NCBI GenBank assembly: GCA_001899175.1
Contig: MKVH01000002.1
Span: forward strand, 287,702-351,701
Length of the DNA: 64,000 nucleotides
Source: Candidatus Kapaibacterium thiocyanatum
GTDB taxonomy: Bacteria; Bacteroidota; Ignavibacteria; Kapaibacteriales; Kapaibacteriaceae
Reading direction: 5' to 3'
The notes under the pieces were generated by a model, which saw only the letters and a program-made list of their open reading frames with translations, was not told the origin of the DNA and did not search any database. Each line of letters opens with the position of its first letter. Within the stretch, counting starts at the first letter, position 1. This document shows positions 12,664 to 45,855 of the stretch, piece after piece. Made by a program: the position numbers and the translations under genes.

Positions 12664-13119
12664 ATGTCCGCCGTCAGAACTCATCTTCTCGCCTTCGTCA
12701 TCATCGTGATCACCCTCGTGTCCGGATGCTCCAAGGACGACTTCCGGGGCACCAGGCCCGACGAGACGCAGAACGCTCTCACCGTTTCCCAGGCCGTCGA
12801 TCCCGTGAACTATGGGCGTACGATCCGTGTGAGGGGAGCCATCGACGCCATCTGCCAGGAGGAAGGCTGCTGGATGGTCATTTCCGACGGCTCGAAGAAG
12901 TTGCGCATTTCGTTCAAGGACGAGGCCTTCACCGTTCCCATGAAGCTGCAGGGCCAGGTTCTGGTGGAAGGTACCGTCAAGGAGGAACTGCTCGCCGAGG
13001 ACGTGGCCAAGGCCATCGGTCCGACGATAGGGAAGTCCGACGCCGAGATCGCCGCAATGAGCGGTGACCAGCGCATTCCCCTCATGACCGCCACGGGCGT
13101 GCTGTTCGACATCCAGTGA
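12664..13119 (+). CDS. DUF4920-like lipoprotein
   Basis: Signal peptide with lipobox LVSGC. The 12556 ORF start is probably an over-extension. Confidence 0.5.
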   Translation: MSAVRTHLLAFVIIVITLVSGCSKDDFRGTRPDETQNALTVSQAVDPVNYGRTIRVRGAIDAICQEEGCWMVISDGSKKLRISFKDEAFTVPMKLQGQVLVEGTVKEELLAEDVAKAIGPTIGKSDAEIAAMSGDQRIPLMTATGVLFDIQ

Positions 13120-13129
13120 AACTTCGACG

Positions 13130-15343
13130 ATGAGCCCCCGTATCGCCAGCGTCTCGACGACGCATCTCGATACGGGGGCATTCAGGGACGACATGATCAA
13201 ACTGCCGGACGATCCATCGACACAACGCTCAGTAGCGACGACACTGATCATTTCCGGCGTCGTCCTCATGCTCGTGCGCATGGTGCTTGTCCTGTTCTGG
13301 AGCGTCATCGGCGGTCATCCCGTCGCCTCGAACATCTGGATCGAGATCGCCCTCGCACTCATGAGCGATCTCGTGCTGGCCTGCATCGTCGGCGTCAGCG
13401 TCATCTATTTCGGCCGACGTGCGAACAACGAAATGTCGTACGAGACCATCGCCGGTGCCATCACCACCTATGCCGTTTCTGCGCTCGCACTGCTGCTCGT
13501 GGCCGCACTCCTGCCACCCGACATCGAGGCTGGCAGACCGATCGGCGTCGTCGACCTCATCATGTCGAACGTCATCGCGCTCGGGACCTTCACGATCTCC
13601 ATAGGTTTCGCTGGCTTCCTGACCCAGGTATTGCTGGCACGACGTCATGCCAAGACGCGTATGCTGCTGCTGGTGCAGTTCTTCCTGTTGCTCTGCATCT
13701 GGCTCTGCGAGGCACTGGATTCGTACAGCAGCTTCTTCGGCATCCTGGGATTCCTCCTGACCGTCGTCGGCGCCATCGTGATGCTGATCAACATCCGCCG
13801 CCTTAACTGGGTCGCGGGCATCACCATGGACAAGAAGATCCGTCTGCTGTGGCTGACGGCATGTGGAGCTTTCGCGGCCCTCATCCTGTCGCTGACCCAT
13901 TCGTTCGGAGAAGAGGCTGCCGTGACGGAATCGGCGCAACTCTTCATCCGCAGTGGAGCCGTCCTGCCCTATACGATCAACTTCTTCGGCTTCGTATTCT
14001 TCGTCCGCCTGCTCTTCGCCATCGTGGCATCACTGCCCAACAGCGGAATCGTGGATCGCCGTTCCAACGAAGTCGAATCCCTGGCCTATCTCACGCGTCT
14101 CATGGCCGAAACGGCCGACGTGGAGCAACTGCTGACGTCAGTGACGCAGTTCGCCCTTCGCGTATGCCGTGCCCACGGTGCGTGGTGCGAGACCTACGAG
14201 GACGATGGGGAAGTCCGCGTGATCGCGGCCCAGCTCGTCCATCCCGACTACGTACGCGCGCTCCATTCGAACCGTCAGTTGCACCGTCTGCTGCAGACGT
14301 CCGAGCGGCCCGTGCTCATCGAATCCGTCGCCGACCATCTTCCCGAAGCAGATCGTTCCCTCGCGGTGCGCTCCCTGATCGCCGTTCCGCTCGTATCGAA
14401 CCATCACCGTACCGGTACGCTCGTCATGTTCAGCACGGTCGAGTTCGGATTCGAGGCCGACGATCTGCGCCTCCTCACGGCATTCGGCGATACGATCAGT
14501 ATCGCCCTCGATCAGGCCCGTCTCATGGAGGCGGCCATCGAGAAGGAACGGCTGCAGAAGGAGTTCGACGTGGCCCAGCGTATCCAGTCCTCCCTCCTGC
14601 CCGTCACGGCGCCGTCGATCGACCGGTTCGCCGTCGACGCGATCACCATTCCGGCTACGGAGGTCGGCGGGGACTACTTCGACTACGTGCGCTTCGCCAA
14701 CGGCAGTACCGGAGTCCTCATCGCCGACGTGTCAGGCAAGGGTATTCCGGCCGCCCTCTACATGGCCACGCTCAAGGGAGCCGTGCTTGCCGAGATGCGG
14801 TATGCGACGGGTCCGGCCGACCTGCTGCGTCGCATCAATGCTGCCCTGTTCGGCTCGATGGAACGTCAGATGTACATCACCATGGCCTGCATCTCGTATC
14901 ATCCCGATTCGCGTTCGCTACGTGTGGCACGGGCCGGACATACCCCGGTCCTCGTCCGTACGGGCGAGGACGTCCACGTCCTCACGCCGCGGGGCGTGGC
15001 CATCGGCATCGTTGGGCCCGTCATGTTCGATGCGGCTCTCGTGGAAGAAGCGTTGATGGTTTCGGACGGGGACATCTGCCTGCTGACGACGGACGGCGTG
15101 AACGAACGTCGCAACGAACGTCTGGCCGAGATCAGCCTGGATCCCGTCGTCGAACTCATCCGTGCCCAGTGCGACAGCACGGCCTCCGATATCGTGAGGG
15201 CCACGCTGGAACTGCTGGAACGGCATGCCGACGGCGCGGAACAGCACGACGATCTCACCATCGTCGCCATCCGTTTCGGAGGGGCGAGTGAAACCAGAAC
15301 GCATCAGGAACGTATTGAGGTCGTTACCGGAGTATCAGCATGA
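13130..15343 (+). CDS. Membrane-anchored PP2C/SpoIIE-family serine phosphatase (RsbU-like) with multi-TM N-terminal region and GAF-like domain
   Basis: ~8 predicted TM helices, a central GAF-like region, and a C-terminal PP2C signature EVGGDYFDYV...LIADVSGKGIPAALYMA...LLTTDGVNE. Confidence 0.8.
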   Translation: MSPRIASVSTTHLDTGAFRDDMIKLPDDPSTQRSVATTLIISGVVLMLVRMVLVLFWSVIGGHPVASNIWIEIALALMSDLVLACIVGVSVIYFGRRANNEMSYETIAGAITTYAVSALALLLVAALLPPDIEAGRPIGVVDLIMSNVIALGTFTISIGFAGFLTQVLLARRHAKTRMLLLVQFFLLLCIWLCEALDSYSSFFGILGFLLTVVGAIVMLINIRRLNWVAGITMDKKIRLLWLTACGAFAALILSLTHSFGEEAAVTESAQLFIRSGAVLPYTINFFGFVFFVRLLFAIVASLPNSGIVDRRSNEVESLAYLTRLMAETADVEQLLTSVTQFALRVCRAHGAWCETYEDDGEVRVIAAQLVHPDYVRALHSNRQLHRLLQTSERPVLIESVADHLPEADRSLAVRSLIAVPLVSNHHRTGTLVMFSTVEFGFEADDLRLLTAFGDTISIALDQARLMEAAIEKERLQKEFDVAQRIQSSLLPVTAPSIDRFAVDAITIPATEVGGDYFDYVRFANGSTGVLIADVSGKGIPAALYMATLKGAVLAEMRYATGPADLLRRINAALFGSMERQMYITMACISYHPDSRSLRVARAGHTPVLVRTGEDVHVLTPRGVAIGIVGPVMFDAALVEEALMVSDGDICLLTTDGVNERRNERLAEISLDPVVELIRAQCDSTASDIVRATLELLERHADGAEQHDDLTIVAIRFGGASETRTHQERIEVVTGVSA

Positions 15344-15702
15344 GCCAGAAATCATTTTCCTCTTCAGCAACCAAACGGGAACGCGGTACCTGCGTGATCG
15401 AACTTGCAGGCTATCTCGATGCCCATACGGCCACGGAGCTGGAAAACATGATGCAGTCGGTGATCAACGGCGGCTGCCGTCGCCTTGTCATCGACTTCTC
15501 CGATCTCGAATACATCAGCAGCGCCGGTCTGGGCGTCTTCATGGTCTTCATCGAAAGCGTCCGTTCCGATGGCGGAGACATCAAGCTCGCCGCCATGAAG
15601 CCGAAGGTCTTCACGGTCTTCGATCTCCTCGGCTTCCCGGTCCTGTTCGAAATCCACGCAACCGTCGACGAGGCCATCGCGGCCTTTCCGCAAGAAGCAT
15701 GA
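15340..15702 (+). CDS. STAS-domain anti-sigma-factor antagonist (RsbV/SpoIIAA-like)
   Basis: 120 aa. Phosphorylatable Ser context DLEYISSAGLGVF. ATGA overlap with the upstream phosphatase. Confidence 0.8.
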   Translation: MSQKSFSSSATKRERGTCVIELAGYLDAHTATELENMMQSVINGGCRRLVIDFSDLEYISSAGLGVFMVFIESVRSDGGDIKLAAMKPKVFTVFDLLGFPVLFEIHATVDEAIAAFPQEA

Positions 15703-16139
15703 GCAGGGCAGCACAACATCGCGATACACTTCGCGTCGCCGCGACCACGGAAAACCTCCATGTCGTGCGTGACTTCGTACGCCTGCGCATCGGCGAGCTC
15801 GGCTTCTCCGATTTCGAGGAGAACGGCATCATCCTTGCCGTCGACGAGGCTTGCTCCAATCTCATCCGTCACGCCTATCACAACGATCCGTCGCAGACCA
15901 TCGAAATCGCCGTGACGATCAGGCAGGACTCCGTATCCGTGAATATTGCCGATACGGCCGAAGCCTTCGACCCGTGCCATGCGCCATTGCCGGACATGAC
16001 CGACTATCTCGAGGAGCGCCGCCACGGCGGTCTAGGCATCCTGATCATGACGCGCGTCATGGACGATATCGCCTACGTTCCGGCCGGCGAAAGCTGCCAC
16101 CAAAACATGTTGATCCTTACGAAGCGTCGCACTGCGTAA
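15699..16139 (+). CDS. Anti-sigma regulatory factor, HATPase_c serine kinase (RsbW/SpoIIAB-like)
   Basis: EACSNLIRHAY, GGLGILIM motifs. ATGA overlap with the STAS gene. Confidence 0.75.
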   Translation: MSRAAQHRDTLRVAATTENLHVVRDFVRLRIGELGFSDFEENGIILAVDEACSNLIRHAYHNDPSQTIEIAVTIRQDSVSVNIADTAEAFDPCHAPLPDMTDYLEERRHGGLGILIMTRVMDDIAYVPAGESCHQNMLILTKRRTA

Positions 16140-16150
16140 TTTTGAGGGAT

Positions 16151-17224
16151 ATGAAGTATCTCCTCATGCTCGGCGGCGTGGGCCTCGGCCTTCTTCTGGG
16201 GTTCATGCCCTCAATCTCGCGTCCCAAACCGATGTGGTGGCGCATCCTGACCATCGCAGCGGTGACGCTGACCGTCCTGTTCTCCCTGCTGCCGCCCATC
16301 GGAGGTACCCTTACCGACGTCATGATGGCCTCGCGTGCCGATTCCACAAAGGCGGTGCCGTTCTATGCCGTCGTCGAGGACGAAGTCGCCCCGAAGGAAG
16401 GTGGCGCAGCGCCCGACATCATGCTGCGTGACGCACGCGACAGCCGTATTTCCGCCGTCCTGAGCGCCGATGCTTCCACCGTGGCGGCATTGCGTGCGAA
16501 CAAGGGCAGGAGCGTGATCGTCAACGTACGACGTGGAGCCAATGACGTCCAGCTCGTGGCTGCACCCACCAATACCATCGTCGCCGTCGAACCGGCCATC
16601 ACCCTGCCCTACATCATGGGCCTGGAGGAACGTGCACGGATCATCTTCTTCCACGTACCGATGTCGTGGACGGCTGTCGTGGCCTATCTGATCGCCATGA
16701 TCTTCGGCATCCGCTACCTCAGGAGCCGCGATCTCGCCCACGATGCCGCCTCGGCCGCAGCGGCCGGCGTAGGAACCCTCTATTGCATCCTGGCGACGAT
16801 CACCGGTGCCGTATGGGCCAAGTTCAACTGGGGCTCGTTCTGGAACTGGGACCCCCGCGAGACATCGATCTTCGTCCTGCTCCTGATCTACTTCGCCTAC
16901 TTCCTCCTGCGTACGTCGATAGACGATGATGAGCGTCGTGCACGTCTTAGCAGTGTCTACGGCATCGTGGCCTTCGTCACGGTACCGTTCTTCATCTTCA
17001 TCCTGCCTCGGCTGCTGCCGGGCCTGCATCCGGGAAGTTCGGACGATACCACGGCCGGCCCGCTGCTGAGCCCCAAGTCCGAGGCGATCAACCCGACGAA
17101 ACAGGTGGTGTTCGCCTTGTCGCTCATGGCATTCACCCTCATCTATTTCTGGCTCATGAACCTGCGTCTGCGTGCTACGAACCTCGAACGCACGATGGAG
17201 CAGCAACGTCTGGAGAACGTATGA
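16151..17224 (+). CDS. ccmC: Heme exporter protein CcmC with ~160-aa N-terminal extension
   Basis: C-terminal two-thirds carry the CcmC WWD region (WGSFWNWDPRETS). The N-terminal part has TM helices plus a soluble segment. Confidence 0.8.
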   Translation: MKYLLMLGGVGLGLLLGFMPSISRPKPMWWRILTIAAVTLTVLFSLLPPIGGTLTDVMMASRADSTKAVPFYAVVEDEVAPKEGGAAPDIMLRDARDSRISAVLSADASTVAALRANKGRSVIVNVRRGANDVQLVAAPTNTIVAVEPAITLPYIMGLEERARIIFFHVPMSWTAVVAYLIAMIFGIRYLRSRDLAHDAASAAAAGVGTLYCILATITGAVWAKFNWGSFWNWDPRETSIFVLLLIYFAYFLLRTSIDDDERRARLSSVYGIVAFVTVPFFIFILPRLLPGLHPGSSDDTTAGPLLSPKSEAINPTKQVVFALSLMAFTLIYFWLMNLRLRATNLERTMEQQRLENV

Positions 17225-17370
17225 TCGACTTTCTGACGAACAATCCTGCCTACGTCGTTCTTACCGCCGCGCTTCTGATATGGTCGGGCATCGCATGGTA
17301 CATCATGCGTGTGGACCGGAAGCTCGGCCAACTCGAAGCCACCGCAAAGTCCGAGAAGGGACGATCATGA
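17221..17370 (+). CDS. ccmD: CcmD-like small membrane protein (49 aa)
   Basis: Not in the ORF track (<60 aa). MIDFLTNNPAYVVLTAALLIWSGIAWYIMRVDRKLGQLEATAKSEKGRS. ATGA overlaps at both ends place it exactly between ccmC and ccmE. Confidence 0.5.
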   Translation: MIDFLTNNPAYVVLTAALLIWSGIAWYIMRVDRKLGQLEATAKSEKGRS

Positions 17371-17756
17371 AACCACGCTATATCATCGCCGCCCTCATTG
17401 CCGTTGCCCTCCTCGCCGTCGGATACATGGCCCTCGATTCGAGTGCCATCGAATACGCCGACGTCGACAAGGCCGAACGTATGGGCAAAACCGTCCAGGT
17501 CGTCGGTACCTGGGTCAAGGAAGAAGGCATGTCCTACGACAACGTCTCGAACATCTTCCGCTTCACGATGAAGGACGAGCACGGCCGCCGCATTCCCGTG
17601 GAGCTGGCCGGGCCCAAGCCGAACAACTTCGAGATCGCCGTGAGCGTCGTGGTCAAGGGCCGTGTCGAGAACGGAACCTTCATGGCCTCGAACGTCCTCA
17701 CCAAGTGTCCTTCCAAGTACGAAGGACAGCCTGCCGAATCGATGAAGGCTTCATGA
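17367..17756 (+). CDS. ccmE: Cytochrome c maturation chaperone CcmE, CxxxY variant
   Basis: TM anchor plus OB-fold. C-terminus FMASNVLTKCPSKYEG aligns with E. coli ILAKEVLAKHDENYTP, with Cys replacing the heme-binding His. Confidence 0.75.
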   Translation: MKPRYIIAALIAVALLAVGYMALDSSAIEYADVDKAERMGKTVQVVGTWVKEEGMSYDNVSNIFRFTMKDEHGRRIPVELAGPKPNNFEIAVSVVVKGRVENGTFMASNVLTKCPSKYEGQPAESMKAS

Positions 17757-18112
17757 TGTTGCGTCGCATCATCATCATCGTCGCAGTCCTGACCATTCCC
17801 GTCGTCATCTACATCGCAGCCCAGTACGGACGTCTTACGGAAACGACGTTCGCAGGCGCCATCACGGCGACGTCGACGGGTGGGGAAGGCGATCAGGCTC
17901 CGAAGGTCATCATCGTCACCACCATCGACAACCCGGATGCGGGCGATGGCTACATGACCGGCCATGACGGTTCGGGACGTGCCTTCCGCATCCAGTACAC
18001 GGGCTCGGTTCCCGAGCAGCCTTTCTCGAAGGGCACGACAGTACGATTCGTCGGCCACGTCCACGGTGCCGACGACGGATATTTCCATGCTACACAGGTA
18101 TACGGCAAATGA
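17753..18112 (+). CDS. CcmE-fold paralog (membrane-anchored OB-fold protein)
   Basis: 119 aa. N-terminal TM helix, C-terminus ...TTVRFVGHVHGADDGYFHATQVYGK. ATGA-coupled to both neighbours. Confidence 0.55.
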   Translation: MMLRRIIIIVAVLTIPVVIYIAAQYGRLTETTFAGAITATSTGGEGDQAPKVIIVTTIDNPDAGDGYMTGHDGSGRAFRIQYTGSVPEQPFSKGTTVRFVGHVHGADDGYFHATQVYGK

Positions 18113-20484
18113 TCGGACAACTGCTCATTCACGCCCTGTTCGGGCTCACGGTGGTAACGACCATCATGTATGCGCTGGCATACTTCCGCCGTAATCCTTC
18201 CCTTGCGGGTGCGGCACGGCAGATGTTCGGCCTCATCGCCATCTGTCTCGTCGCCTGTGCGTCGATGCTCGTCGTGAACATCATCCAGCACCGGTTCGAC
18301 TATACCTACGTCTACAGCTATTCGTCGACGGAACTGCCGCTTCATCTGCTGATCGCGAGCTTCTACTCTGGACAGGAGGGGAGCTTCCTGCTGTGGACGA
18401 TGCTCGTGAGCATTATCGGCGTCGTCCTGCTGCCATATGCGCGGAAACAGGATTATGAAGCTCCGATGATGATGTTCTACGGACTCATCCTGTGCTTCCT
18501 GACGTTGCTGCTCGTGGCCAAGAATCCGTTCGCCTATTACTACGAGACCTTCGCCGCGCAGGGGATATCGGTAGCCGACGTACCGAACAATGGCCGCGGC
18601 CTCAATCCGCTGCTGCATAATGCATGGATCACGATCCATCCGCCCATCCTCTTCACGGGTTTCGCTGCCATGAGCGTAAGCTTCGTCTTTGCCATGGCCG
18701 GATTGATCAAACGTGACTATCATCGGTGGATCACGGTGGCATTGCCGTGGACGCTTCTCGCGACGGCCGTGCTCGGCTTCGGCATCATGCTCGGTGGGTT
18801 CTGGGCCTACGAAACGCTCGGCTGGGGCGGTTTCTGGGGATGGGATCCCGTGGAGAATTCGTCGCTGATCCCGTGGCTCGTGAGCGTGGCTCTCGTGCAT
18901 ACGATGCTCGTGCAGAAGCGTACACGAGGCCTCGTCAAGACCAACATGATCCTTGCGGTCCTGGCCTTCGTCATGGTGCTGTATTCCACGTTCCTCACGC
19001 GGAGCGGTATCCTCGGCGACACGTCGGTGCACTCCTTCGTCGATCCGGGCAAGTTCGCCTTCTGGATCCTGCTGGCCTTCATGCTCACGTTCACCGTCAT
19101 CGGTCTGTGGCTGGTTCTCTCGCGCCGGTCGGACATGAACGTACGGCGCGAGGACTTCTCGCCTCGTACGCGGGAATTCATGTTGTCCATCGGTGCGGCC
19201 CTCGTGATGGCCAGTGCGGTCTTCGTGACCATCGGTACGTCGTGGCCCGTCATCATGGAAGTGATCGGTCAGCCGAAGGTCGCCGTCTCGGTCGACTTCT
19301 ACAACAAGGTCCACATCATTCTCGTACCGGCCATTCTCATCGTCAATGCGCTGTCGTTGCTGCTGCAATGGCGGAGCACGCCCGGAAGCCTCTTCCGCCG
19401 TCGTGTGCTGACGTCCGGTGTCGTGGCCATTGCCGCCACGGCCGTTGCCGCGATCCTGGGAATCCGCGACGTCGTGTCGCTCGTCCTGATGGTATCGGCA
19501 TGGTTCGCCCTCGTGGTCAACGCACAGATGGGATGGAACTTCGCGCAGCGCTCGCCGGCCATGCTGGGAGCCTACGTATCCCACCTCGGAATCGCCCTGC
19601 TGATCTTCGGCGTCATCACGACGGCGAACTATACGGAGGCGCATCACGCGATGCTGCCGCAGAACGTGCCGACGAAGGTGGGCGATTTCACGCTGACGTA
19701 TCTCGGTTCGCGTGAGATCGACACGACCTTCAAGGACCGCAGGAAAATGGAGTATCTCGTTCGCATCGAACGCGACGGAGCGAAGGCCATGGTGGCGCCC
19801 GTTCTGTACTGGAGCGACTTCAACAAGCGTCAGTCACCCTTCCTCGAGCCCGGTATCCGATGGGGTCTGATGAACGACCTCTATGTGTCTCCGAAGGCCG
19901 AACCCTACATGGACGGCATCTCCGAAGCCGTGACGATACAGCGCAGCGGTACGATCCGCGTACCGGTGGATACGACGCGTACGCTGACCCTGGAGCGGTT
20001 CACGATGCCGATGGAAGAAGGTTCCGCCCAGGACGGACGCATGCAGATGGCGGCGATGCTGGTGGCGACCGATGCCGGTGGCCATCGTGATACCATCAAG
20101 GCGCTGACGAGGATCACGATGGGTGAGAACGGTCCGGGCTTCGATCCCGTATGGGCATCCATTCCCGGTACGACGATCGGCGTGGGCCTGGTACGTATCG
20201 AACGCAACAATGCCGATCCGTCGAAATCCCTCGGCGACCTGGTCTTCCGCGACATCTCCAAGGATGCGCGCGAGGTGTTCACCGTGGAATTCTCCGTCAA
20301 GCCTTTCATCAGCCTCGTATGGTTCGGCGTGATCACGATGGTGGCAGGCTTCGCCTTCTCCATCGTGCGTTATCTACGTCTGAGCAAACAGCAGGGTGCG
20401 CTCGCCGGCACCGACCTCACGCCACGTGCCGACGGCAAGGTCTCCGAGTCCGAGCATGCCGATACGAACGCGGAGCAGACGTAA
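18109..20484 (+). CDS. ccmF: Cytochrome c-type biogenesis protein CcmF (heme lyase component)
   Basis: 791 aa, multi-TM, WWD motif WGGFWGWDPVENSS. C-terminal ~140 aa extend beyond the usual CcmF length. Confidence 0.9.
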   Translation: MIGQLLIHALFGLTVVTTIMYALAYFRRNPSLAGAARQMFGLIAICLVACASMLVVNIIQHRFDYTYVYSYSSTELPLHLLIASFYSGQEGSFLLWTMLVSIIGVVLLPYARKQDYEAPMMMFYGLILCFLTLLLVAKNPFAYYYETFAAQGISVADVPNNGRGLNPLLHNAWITIHPPILFTGFAAMSVSFVFAMAGLIKRDYHRWITVALPWTLLATAVLGFGIMLGGFWAYETLGWGGFWGWDPVENSSLIPWLVSVALVHTMLVQKRTRGLVKTNMILAVLAFVMVLYSTFLTRSGILGDTSVHSFVDPGKFAFWILLAFMLTFTVIGLWLVLSRRSDMNVRREDFSPRTREFMLSIGAALVMASAVFVTIGTSWPVIMEVIGQPKVAVSVDFYNKVHIILVPAILIVNALSLLLQWRSTPGSLFRRRVLTSGVVAIAATAVAAILGIRDVVSLVLMVSAWFALVVNAQMGWNFAQRSPAMLGAYVSHLGIALLIFGVITTANYTEAHHAMLPQNVPTKVGDFTLTYLGSREIDTTFKDRRKMEYLVRIERDGAKAMVAPVLYWSDFNKRQSPFLEPGIRWGLMNDLYVSPKAEPYMDGISEAVTIQRSGTIRVPVDTTRTLTLERFTMPMEEGSAQDGRMQMAAMLVATDAGGHRDTIKALTRITMGENGPGFDPVWASIPGTTIGVGLVRIERNNADPSKSLGDLVFRDISKDAREVFTVEFSVKPFISLVWFGVITMVAGFAFSIVRYLRLSKQQGALAGTDLTPRADGKVSESEHADTNAEQT

Positions 20485-20946
20485 CGTCGGCAGCCCCACG
20501 GATGCCGTCATCCGTCGAACCTGCCTGTTCTTGCCCTCGATCAGTTCCAGTTCGAGCCAGTCCACGGGAACGTTCTTCCGCTCGCGGATCGGCGGTATGC
20601 GCTCGTGTACCGTCGGTGCAGGATGCAATCTCCGTGCCCGGCATGGGCGGGTACGATAGTCTCCGATCATGACTCCACGACGAAGTGCGGCAAGTGCCTC
20701 GTCCGAGATCGTGCCCTCGACCTGCGACCAGTAGGTACGCCAGTGTGCCTGCGATGGATCGAGCAGGCGCGAAGTCAATCCCTTCTCGTCGCCGAGCAGC
20801 AACATCCCCTCACTGTCCGCATCCAGGCGTCCGACAGGATAGACACCGGCAGGGAAGTCGAACGCAGCCAGCGTTCCGTAGGTGCTGCCGGGTTCCGGTG
20901 TGAATTGCGAGAGAATGCCGAAGGGTTTGTTGAAGAGAAGAAGCAT
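20374..20946 (-). CDS. rluE: 23S rRNA pseudouridine synthase RluE
   Basis: LLFNKPFGILSQFTPE...GRLDADSEGMLLL...NRQVRRMTASVGLPTLRLLRVRIG, close to E. coli RluE throughout. Confidence 0.85.
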   Translation of the reverse strand: MLLLFNKPFGILSQFTPEPGSTYGTLAAFDFPAGVYPVGRLDADSEGMLLLGDEKGLTSRLLDPSQAHWRTYWSQVEGTISDEALAALRRGVMIGDYRTRPCRARRLHPAPTVHERIPPIRERKNVPVDWLELELIEGKNRQVRRMTASVGLPTLRLLRVRIGMLGLGDLAVGTWREVGAGERTLLFAQT

Positions 20947-43889: not shown

Positions 43890-45107
43890 ATGCAACACCT
43901 CAAACAGCTCGTCGCCGCCTTTCTCATGGCCCTGGCGGCCCATCCTCTGGCCTCGTGCGCGCCCGGTCCGGAACCGGCCGCCGAAGCGCCGCTGTACACC
44001 GAATCGAGGGCCGTCGTCGCGGACGACGATATCTCGACGTCGAGGCAGAACGCCATCACGCGTGCCGTGAAGAACTGCTCGCCGGCCGTCGTCGGCATCA
44101 ACGTCACGGAAGTGCACGAGCAGGTCTACAGGGATCCGTTCGATGCCTTCTTCGAAGACGATCCGGTATTCCGCCGATACTTCCAGCCGAGGGCATACAA
44201 GCGTCAGTATACGGTGCGCGGCCTGGGCTCCGGCTTCCTGATCTCGAAGGATGGCTACATCATCACGAACGACCACGTCGCCGGCAACGCATCGAAGATC
44301 GTCGTCACCTTGACCAATGGCGAGAAGTACGACGCCGAAATCATCGGCACGGATCCCACGACCGACGTAGCGCTACTGAAGATCAAGGGCGAGAACTTCC
44401 CGTATCTCAAGCTGTCCAACAGCGAGGACGTCCAGGTCGGGGAATGGGCCATCGCCTTCGGCAATCCGTTCGGACTGTTCGACAACAACGCCAAACCGAC
44501 CGTCACGGTGGGTGTGGTGAGCAACATCGGCGTGAACTTCACGCAGCCGGACGAACGCGGCGGAGACCGTGTCTATCGAGGTATGATCCAGACCGACGCG
44601 GCCATTTCGTCGGGCAATTCCGGCGGACCGCTCGTCAACGCACTCGGCGACGTCATCGGTGTGAATACGGTCATCTATTCCACGGCACAGAATGCCCGTG
44701 GCGCGGGATCCATCGGTATCGGATTCTCGATTCCGATCAACCGCGTGAGGACCATCGTCGATCGCATCCGCAAGCACGGTACCATCAACCGGGACTTCTG
44801 GACCGGACTCGAGATGCAGGGGATCACGGAAGAAGTGGCCTCGTACTTCAAGATCGATCGTACGGACGGCGTCTTCGTCACGCGCGTCTATCCGAACAGC
44901 CCTGGAGCGCGTGCGGGTATCGAGCCCGGTGATATCATCGTGGCCATCGACGGCAGGCCGGTCGTGAAGAACGAAGACGTGAACGTCGCCGTCCTCGACG
45001 GTGAAGTAGGCAATACACTCAAACTGACGATCGTGCGGGGCAGCAAGGAAGAAACGGTGTCCCTCACGCTTACACAACGTCCCCGGAGCGGCAGTGCCAG
45101 AAACTAG
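43890..45107 (+). CDS. htrA: Trypsin-like serine protease with PDZ domain (HtrA/DegQ family)
   Basis: Signal peptide [23 protein letters not shown]. Catalytic triad context TNDHV...DVALLKI...GNSGGPL. C-terminal PDZ. AGGAAG RBS. Confidence 0.88.
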
Positions 45108-45855
45108 TACAAGCGGTCAGACAGGCAGCATCCTTCGTGCGCAGGATCTGATGAAGGTCTACAAGAAGCGTACGGTGGTGAAGGGAAGTACCCTCTCCGT
45201 CAAGCAGGGTGAGGTCGTAGGATTGCTCGGTCCCAACGGTGCGGGCAAGACGACGACGTTCTACATGATGGTGGGGATGGTGAAGCCGAACAGGGGGCGC
45301 GTCTTTCTCGATGATGGCGACATCACGGGAACGGCCATGTACAAGCGTGCCCGCCGTGGGATCGCCTATCTTCCGCAGGAAGCGTCGATCTTCCGCCGGC
45401 TCTCCGTCGAACAGAACATCACGGCCATCCTTCAGCTCAAGCGTATGTCGTCTGCCAGACGCAAGGAACGTCTGGAGGAACTGCTCGAGGAATTCGGTAT
45501 CACGCGTATCCGCAAGAGCAAGGGCTACATGCTCTCGGGGGGCGAACGTCGCCGCTGCGAGATCGCCCGGGCCCTCGCCACGGATCCGAAATTCGTCCTG
45601 CTCGACGAGCCCTTCGCCGGTATCGACCCCATCGCGGTCGAGGATATCATGCAGATCGTGCGACAACTGCGCACGAAAGGAATCGGCGTCCTGATCACCG
45701 ATCATAACGTCCATGAGACGCTGTCCATCACGGACCGCGCCTATATTCTCATCGACGGAAGCATCTTCGTGAACGGTACGGCCGAAGACATCGCAGCCAA
45801 TGCCGAAGTACGCCGCCGTTATCTCGGCGAGAATTTCACGCTCGGCCGTTACTGA
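45094..45855 (+). CDS. lptB: LPS export ABC transporter ATP-binding protein
   Basis: Walker [17 protein letters not shown], signature [15 protein letters not shown], Walker [13 protein letters not shown]. Length and N-terminus are LptB-like. Confidence 0.8.

Follow-up and report, generated by a model that had tools for sequence, protein, structure and literature searches.

A tail-less, CcmE-related protein encoded between ccmE and ccmF in a Cys-type cytochrome c maturation operon of Candidatus Kapaibacterium thiocyanatum

The form of System I cytochrome c biogenesis in which the chaperone CcmE carries a Cys was named System I* in a 2011 review of System I, where CPSKY is the majority motif of the variant CcmE proteins (PMC3601427). 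In E. coli the Desulfovibrio System I* yields holocytochrome c with neither CcmH nor CcmG. CcmH is often but not always absent, about one third of the Cys-type systems having it, and the review leaves the chemistry of heme release from the thioether unsettled (PMC3601427). The structure of a Cys-type apo oligonucleotide/oligosaccharide-binding (OB) domain has been solved (PDB 2KCT), functional work is available (PMC3601427, PMC9084895) and the Cys of CcmE was found to be required in Methanosarcina acetivorans (PMC9084895). Here we analyse a stretch of 64,000 nucleotides from Candidatus Kapaibacterium thiocyanatum (GCA_001899175.1, contig MKVH01000002.1, positions 287,702 to 351,701), referred to as the window, which carries an operon of this type with an unannotated open reading frame (ORF) of 119 amino acids (aa), hereafter X, between ccmE and ccmF.

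The genes ccmC, ccmD, ccmE, X and ccmF form a five-gene run on the + strand (16151-20484) with four successive ATGA overlaps, ccmC/ccmD at 17221, ccmD/ccmE at 17367, ccmE/X at 17753 and X/ccmF at 18109. The run is a translationally coupled operon of the Cys-type (System I*) cytochrome c maturation pathway, and its features are as follows.

16151..17224, + strand: ccmC, long form, 357 aa; Pfam Cytochrom_C_asm (93 bits) and TIGR01191 ccmC; WWD motif, two His ligands and an N-terminal extension of ~150 aa
17221..17370, + strand: ccmD, alternative type, 49 aa; PF20077 CcmD_alt (22.3 bits) and TIGR04391 (22.4 bits), both slightly below their cut-offs
17367..17756, + strand: ccmE, Cys-type (System I*), 129 aa; PF03100 (60.3 bits); predicted transmembrane (TM) anchor, OB barrel and flexible tail
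17706..17720, + strand: predicted heme-attachment motif C114-P-S-K-Y118 of CcmE, from the alignment to H130...Y134 of E. coli CcmE
17753..18112, + strand: X, tail-less CcmE paralog, 119 aa, from an AlphaFold2 model, hhalign and synteny; family unannotated
18056..18088, + strand: His triad of X (H102, H104 and H112) flanking the β4-β5 hairpin, from family conservation, with strands taken from the model
18109..20484, + strand: ccmF heme lyase, 791 aa; Pfam Cytochrom_C_asm and CcmF_C, TIGR00353; WWD motif and four conserved His

Both ORFs described in the initial annotation, ccmE and X, were re-located, and their coordinates, lengths, C-termini and ATGA overlap proved correct. The identity of ccmD is supported by syntenic homologs that bear a precomputed CcmD_alt annotation and by the ATGA overlap on either side. 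The ccmC start was placed at MKYLL, and independent public gene calls likewise give 357 aa.

Analyses of the nucleotide sequence of X and its relatives indicated that X is a genuine gene under purifying selection. Its GC content by codon position resembles that of the neighbouring genes (0.72 at third against 0.47 at second positions), and the ratio of nonsynonymous to synonymous substitution rates (dN/dS) was 0.03-0.3, similar to that of ccmE, for pairs with unsaturated dS. Independent gene calls give the same 119-aa product on 15 public contigs, among them GCA_017307255.1. The protein ends in FHATQVYGK; since its homologs begin with MLR or MLK, translation may actually start at the second ATG (17756).

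Homologs of X amounted to 106 distinct sequences. A word-indexed search returned 47 clusters at 90% identity, and an exhaustive HMMER profile search of 1.84 billion representative proteins returned 41 clusters at 50% identity. In GTDB species-representative genomes 27 X loci were found, all of them in metagenome-assembled genomes (MAGs) labelled mostly Kapaibacterium or Ignavibacteria. No Pfam or NCBIfam family matched X, and the window protein gave no match to PF03100 even at E<=10. Wherever the source names them, the clusters are called 'hypothetical protein', distant members included, save for one Joint Genome Institute (JGI) call of 'CcmE'. A literature search for a CcmE paralog, a 'CcmE-like' protein or ccm genes in Kapabacteria/Ignavibacteria found nothing relevant. 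The X family is an undescribed, lineage-restricted, CcmE-derived paralog.

The derivation from CcmE emerged from profile comparison. Alignment of the X family (A2) with the local CcmE family (A3) by hhalign gave a probability of 97.4% (E 1.1e-11, 118 columns), which remained at 96% (E 2.4e-9) after removal of the TM helices, against 0.3% for a reversed-sequence control. The alignment is in register across the landmarks D-x-x-G, Y-x-G-x-x-P-x-x-F and F-x-A-x-x-V. In a permissive scan PF03100 was the commonest Pfam match over the family, reached below threshold by 10 of 38 members (best E 2e-5), and no other Pfam family was matched by more than three of the 38. When a hidden Markov model (HMM) of X was run against all six-frame ORFs of the window, CcmE was the sole match besides X itself. 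The relation is visible to profile methods only: BLASTP of the window CcmE against X gave no match, the X profile matched no PDB sequence at E<=10, and among the 1.84e9 representatives it retrieved no CcmE-like protein of CcmE length at E<=0.001.

The AlphaFold2 model of X, built from the family alignment, reached a predicted local distance difference test score (pLDDT) of 90 and comprised a TM helix (residues 2-25), a short helix (33-42) and five β-strands forming an OB barrel; the order of structural elements is the same in the X and CcmE models. The suggestion that the second protein is a membrane-anchored OB-fold homolog of CcmE is therefore well founded, resting on the confident model, the 96-97% hhalign probability and the 10 of 38 members that match PF03100. 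X thus arose from a CcmE-like ancestor, retaining its OB barrel together with the N-terminal anchor and the short hinge helix, and is most simply explained as a tandem copy of ccmE from which the tail was lost.

Profile alignment revealed that X ends at K119, equivalent to CcmE K113 and one residue ahead of Cys114, and that at most three residues extend beyond this column in all 106 distinct X sequences. Neither a His/Cys-x3-Tyr motif nor a flexible C-terminal tail was found anywhere in the family; X therefore cannot carry heme covalently in the manner of CcmE. Because it lies below the Pfam threshold and lacks the heme-attachment tail, X should not be filed as a CcmE and is better described as a protein that is CcmE-derived but not itself a CcmE. 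The initial annotation had pointed to an H-x4-Y arrangement at the end of X. This is no counterpart of HxxxY: H112 aligns with CcmE Met106 (Leu122 in E. coli), within the last β-strand, Y117 is Tyr in just 54 of the 106 sequences, and X stops before the Cys114 position. The alignment register and the poor conservation of Y117 thus rule out H112-x4-Y117 as a heme motif.

The residues that the family does conserve are G101-H102-x-H104, which close β4, and H112 in β5. G101 was invariant, and the triad was His-His-His in 93 of the 106 sequences and His-Cys-His in seven. Position 104 carries Cys in eight sequences (seven of them H-C-H), and all three residues are replaced jointly in two. These two members (P0195 and P0196) lack all three histidines. 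A divergent subgroup (loci L033 and L034; members P0199, P0201 and P0205) has G-H-[VI]-C-S-D in place of G-H-V-H-G and an extra insertion of ~8 residues before β4. Judged by the boundaries of the two modelled strands (96-104 and 110-116) and the register of the hairpin, the three His are predicted to share one face at the foot of the β4-β5 loop. Conservation also extends to P16, A22, Y25 and G26, where the TM helix meets the periplasm, a pattern suggestive of an interface between helices. No Cys is conserved in X, and about half of the members lack a periplasmic Cys altogether.

Gene order around X was compared at 35 loci, 33 reached via an X relative and two via the neighbouring CcmE. The order ccmC-ccmD-ccmE-X-ccmF was found at all 35 as far as the contigs extend; X lay between ccmE and ccmF in 33, the remaining two being cut at or near a contig end. 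The gap between ccmE and X ranged from -4 to +14 nt in 29 of the 33 measurable junctions, and even X members of merely ~32-34% identity occupied this position. At the 32 closer loci, X is 43-57% and CcmE 56-80% identical to its counterpart in the window. Several MAGs with the syntenic operon (loci L010, L019, L027, L028 and L031) are labelled Didemnitutus, Hyphomicrobiales, Patescibacteria or Chitinophaga pinensis, in conflict with the Kapaibacterium/Ignavibacteria labels of their closest relatives; these deviant labels probably reflect mistakes in the binning or the taxonomy of the public records.

A metagenomic set of 80 CPSKY-CcmE loci showed the limits of this arrangement. X was present in 21 of them, mainly those whose CcmE is nearest to that of the window, and X is a lineage-specific insertion into an older Cys-type operon and not a general part of System I*. 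A long-form CcmC was encoded in 19 of 19 X-containing loci and a short CcmC never occurred alongside X. A strict co-occurrence was nevertheless rejected, since it holds in one direction only: long CcmC was also found in 13 loci without X.

The CcmE of the window belongs to the known Cys-type chaperones. It scores 60.3 bits against PF03100 (cut-off 24.6), while the NCBIfam CcmE equivalog models match it under their high cut-offs. Its best match among PDB sequences (phmmer) is 2KCT, the Cys-type CcmE of Desulfovibrio vulgaris. The C-terminal part reads ...FMASNVLTKCPSKYEG, then QPAESMKAS, and phmmer alignment with E. coli CcmE (1SR3, 8CE8 chain E) sets LTKCPSKY against LAKHDENY, with Cys114 at the place of heme-binding His130 and Tyr118 at that of Tyr134. 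The AlphaFold model (pLDDT 78) has a helix at 3-25, six strands and a disordered tail of low pLDDT, and the first five protein matches returned for it by Foldseek were 8CE8_E, 1J6Q, 1LM0, 2KCT and 1SR3. CPSKY occurred in 120 of the 120 closest CcmE homologs in a collection of 5.8 billion proteins, was invariant in 27 of 27 aligned homologs and was met in at least 566 CPSKY-type CcmE stretches in a metagenome scan. By homology, the protein is assigned as a standard System I* chaperone with CPSKY, with covalent heme attachment predicted.

The claim that the first protein is a CcmE with Cys at the heme-attachment position was accordingly borne out by its PF03100 score and the alignment to His130, but the Cys-for-His exchange is ordinary: the CPSKY form was already described. 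Calling CxxxY rare was an overstatement for this lineage in view of the 120 nearest homologs, and earlier accounts of the variant exist (PMC3601427, PMC9084895, 2KCT). This half of the observation is not new, as the protein is of the known System I* form and CPSKY is present in all 120 nearest homologs. The tests that had been proposed for both proteins gave divided answers. The search against PF03100 recovered CcmE and not the window X, for which only 10 of 38 relatives matched, all weakly; structure prediction gave an OB fold in each, with CcmE structures on top for the CcmE model only.

CcmF contains HPP, WWD, LVH, SVHSF and SHLG, and CcmC contains FHVP, WWD and LHP, which we take to be the WWD and His-ligand sites. 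The idea that the histidines of X replace a ligand lost from CcmF or CcmC was ruled out, since both keep all their own His ligands. The window CcmC is long (357 aa against ~220-242 aa in many other CPSKY-type loci). Its N-terminal ~160 aa (16151-16630) comprise two hydrophobic helices and a domain of ~95 aa and gave no Pfam match; in hhalign the extension aligned weakly, in register, with the X family and with CcmE, at 71% in each case (E 3.7e-5 and 3.8e-5, respectively), with reversed controls at 0.3-0.4%. The extension may be a third CcmE-like barrel. In CcmF the Pfam domains end near residue 594 of 791, and the last ~190 residues, which belong to no assigned domain, include a further hydrophobic helix near 740-760 and an acidic tail. 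Neither a CcmH (LRCxxC-type) protein nor a thioredoxin-like Ccm gene was found in the operon or the 64-kb window, and no gene for CcmG, ccmA, ccmB or a CxxCH cytochrome was found within the window. The only ATP-binding cassette (ABC) ATPase found in the window (45094-45855) stands alone.

We propose that X is a CcmE-derived accessory subunit of the Ccm machinery and give this reading a probability of about 0.5, with the ligand detail rated lower. The amount of X would stand in a roughly constant ratio to that of CcmE and CcmF, and X would dock as CcmE does, through its anchor and barrel, and would act as an accessory periplasmic subunit at the step from CcmE to CcmF. Its histidines might ligate the heme iron, or a metal ion, in the hand-over or release of the Cys-bound heme, and X may fill part of the role that CcmH has elsewhere. 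Several points weigh against this proposal. A cluster of three His on one face of a sheet is less usual for heme ligation than for a metal site, and the predicted geometry of the triad follows from strand register, not from model coordinates. With the WWD motifs and every His ligand still present in CcmF and CcmC, there is no lost ligand for X to replace. When the X model was used to search for similar folds, generic OB folds came back (RPA14/32, Ten1, YgiW and LysRS-N), and no CcmE structure was within the top 50-60; the specific link between X and CcmE therefore rests on sequence profiles and context. In 46 of the 80 metagenomic CPSKY-CcmE loci ccmF starts at most 130 nt from ccmE, leaving no room for X, and no X is needed by the Desulfovibrio System I* to function in E. 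coli (PMC3601427). Since that system is functional and most CPSKY operons lack the gene, X is not needed for Cys-CcmE chemistry generally.

A stronger version of the proposal would make X an obligatory new subunit of the heme lyase, a 'receiver' barrel whose His triad takes over heme-iron ligation from Cys-linked holo-CcmE, helps to break or bypass the CcmE thioether and substitutes for CcmH; it might act together with the possible CcmE-like module that CcmC carries as an N-terminal fusion (hhalign ~71%) in a three-barrel relay. We consider this version unlikely. The triad could instead mark X as a membrane-tethered periplasmic metal-binding OB protein (Zn, Cu, Ni or Fe) recruited to the operon for metal handling or sensing. 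The H-x-H pair with a cross-strand His, the Cys at position 104 in eight of 106 sequences and the joint loss of the triad in two are all metal-site-like. Carbonic-anhydrase-type sites offer a likeness for such a motif; periplasmic OB-fold metallochaperones exist, and SilF was among the fold neighbours of the CcmE model. Against this, X shares its ancestry with CcmE, lies between ccmE and ccmF wherever both flanks are readable, with stops and starts mostly overlapping or nearly abutting, and has no metal transporter or regulator nearby, which leaves the metal-protein explanation doubtful, if worth keeping in mind. A purely structural or regulatory decoy, holding the CcmE docking sites on CcmC/CcmF or pairing with CcmE so as to tune heme flux or stabilise the complex, would account for the retention of anchor, hinge helix and barrel but not tail, for the possible interface at P16, A22, Y25 and G26 and for the restriction of X to loci with long-form CcmC (19/19). 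Its histidines would then be structural only, and three near-invariant His for which Cys is the sole common substitute are hard to explain by packing; we regard the decoy, too, as improbable.

That X is a generic OB-fold membrane protein unrelated to CcmE, resembling it through shared fold and composition, would fit the failure of BLASTP, of the PDB-sequence profile search and of the search of 1.84e9 representatives to find a CcmE link, as well as the unranked CcmE structures in the fold searches. It is nevertheless very unlikely in view of the E value of 2e-9 obtained without the TM helix against a reversed control at 0.3%, the 10 of 38 members that match PF03100 where no other family is matched by more than three, and an alignment in register across the CcmE landmarks between products of adjacent genes with the same topology. 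Least credible of all is that X is a decaying, functionless duplicate of ccmE. The tail is lost and X evolves faster than its neighbours, as the identities at the 32 closer loci show, but dN/dS is well below 1, the fold is confident, the ORF is intact in 106 distinct sequences with G101 invariant and the triad near-invariant, and X is retained down to ~32% identity; a pseudogene was ruled out by dN/dS and conservation.

Directly upstream of ccmC, on the same strand and with overlapping stops and starts, lies a partner-switching module that is conserved in related genomes (loci L001-L004).

13130-15343, + strand: GAF-SpoIIE phosphatase of the partner-switching module
15340-15702, + strand: STAS protein of the same module
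15699-16139, + strand: HATPase_c_2 anti-sigma-type kinase of the same module

This arrangement suggests that the module and the ccm genes are co-transcribed or that their expression is regulated. Upstream of this module, in the window (12664-13119) and in 24 related loci, a DUF4920 lipoprotein is encoded with a lipobox-like LVSGC and an invariant CQ[ED]EGCW; hhalign gave only 38% with CcmE and 12% with X, and the protein may be another small OB-like periplasmic protein. At the other end of the operon a pseudouridine synthase gene on the - strand (20374-20946) converges on ccmF and overlaps its 3' end (20484) by ~110 nt. The convergent overlap is repeated in locus L001, where ccmF runs to 8738 and PseudoU_synth_2 starts from 8628.

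Cytochrome c biogenesis still poses the questions how heme exits from Cys-linked CcmE and what takes the place of CcmH in System I* (PMC3601427). As a conserved, unannotated gene that derives from the chaperone and lies exactly between the chaperone and lyase genes, X offers a natural handle on the hand-over step. Its reach is limited: X is confined to one uncultured lineage and is dispensable for other System I* organisms, and CxxxY CcmE is already well described.

Comparison of the locus with the described systems places it as follows. With System I* of Desulfovibrio desulfuricans/vulgaris and of archaea such as Methanosarcina acetivorans it shares CPSKY in place of HxxxY, a best PDB match to 2KCT, the presence of ccmC, ccmD, ccmE and ccmF and an operon without ccmH and ccmG. 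Unlike these systems, it has X between ccmE and ccmF, a CcmD of the CcmD_alt type, a CcmC with an N-terminal extension of ~150 aa and no ccmA or ccmB in the operon. The Kapabacteria/Ignavibacteria host also falls outside the groups with a Cys variant in the 2011 review, namely delta-proteobacteria, Chloroflexi, Firmicutes and archaea (PMC3601427).

X itself resembles canonical CcmE (E. coli; PF03100; 1SR3, 1J6Q, 8CE8 chain E) in its single N-terminal TM anchor, hinge helix and OB barrel and in the three shared landmarks, F91 corresponding to E. coli F103. It differs from it by the lack of the flexible tail and of His/Cys-x3-Tyr, by a Pfam score below the cut-off or none, and by the X-specific His triad on β4/β5, where the aligned CcmE residues are G98, V100 and M106. 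Small periplasmic OB proteins (the YgiW/BOF family and the CusF/SilF metallochaperones) are soluble after cleavage of a signal peptide and are not encoded in ccm operons, and no sequence relation to X was detectable. X has no sequence or fold relation to CcmH or CcmI, CcmH being a three-helix bundle with LRCxxC and CcmI a tetratricopeptide repeat (TPR) protein (PMC3601427); its all-β fold and the lack of a conserved Cys pair rule out that X is CcmH, CcmG or CcmI. What X has in common with CcmH and CcmI is that it is a membrane-anchored periplasmic protein, as predicted for X, whose gene adjoins ccmF, and it could hold an accessory role comparable to theirs.
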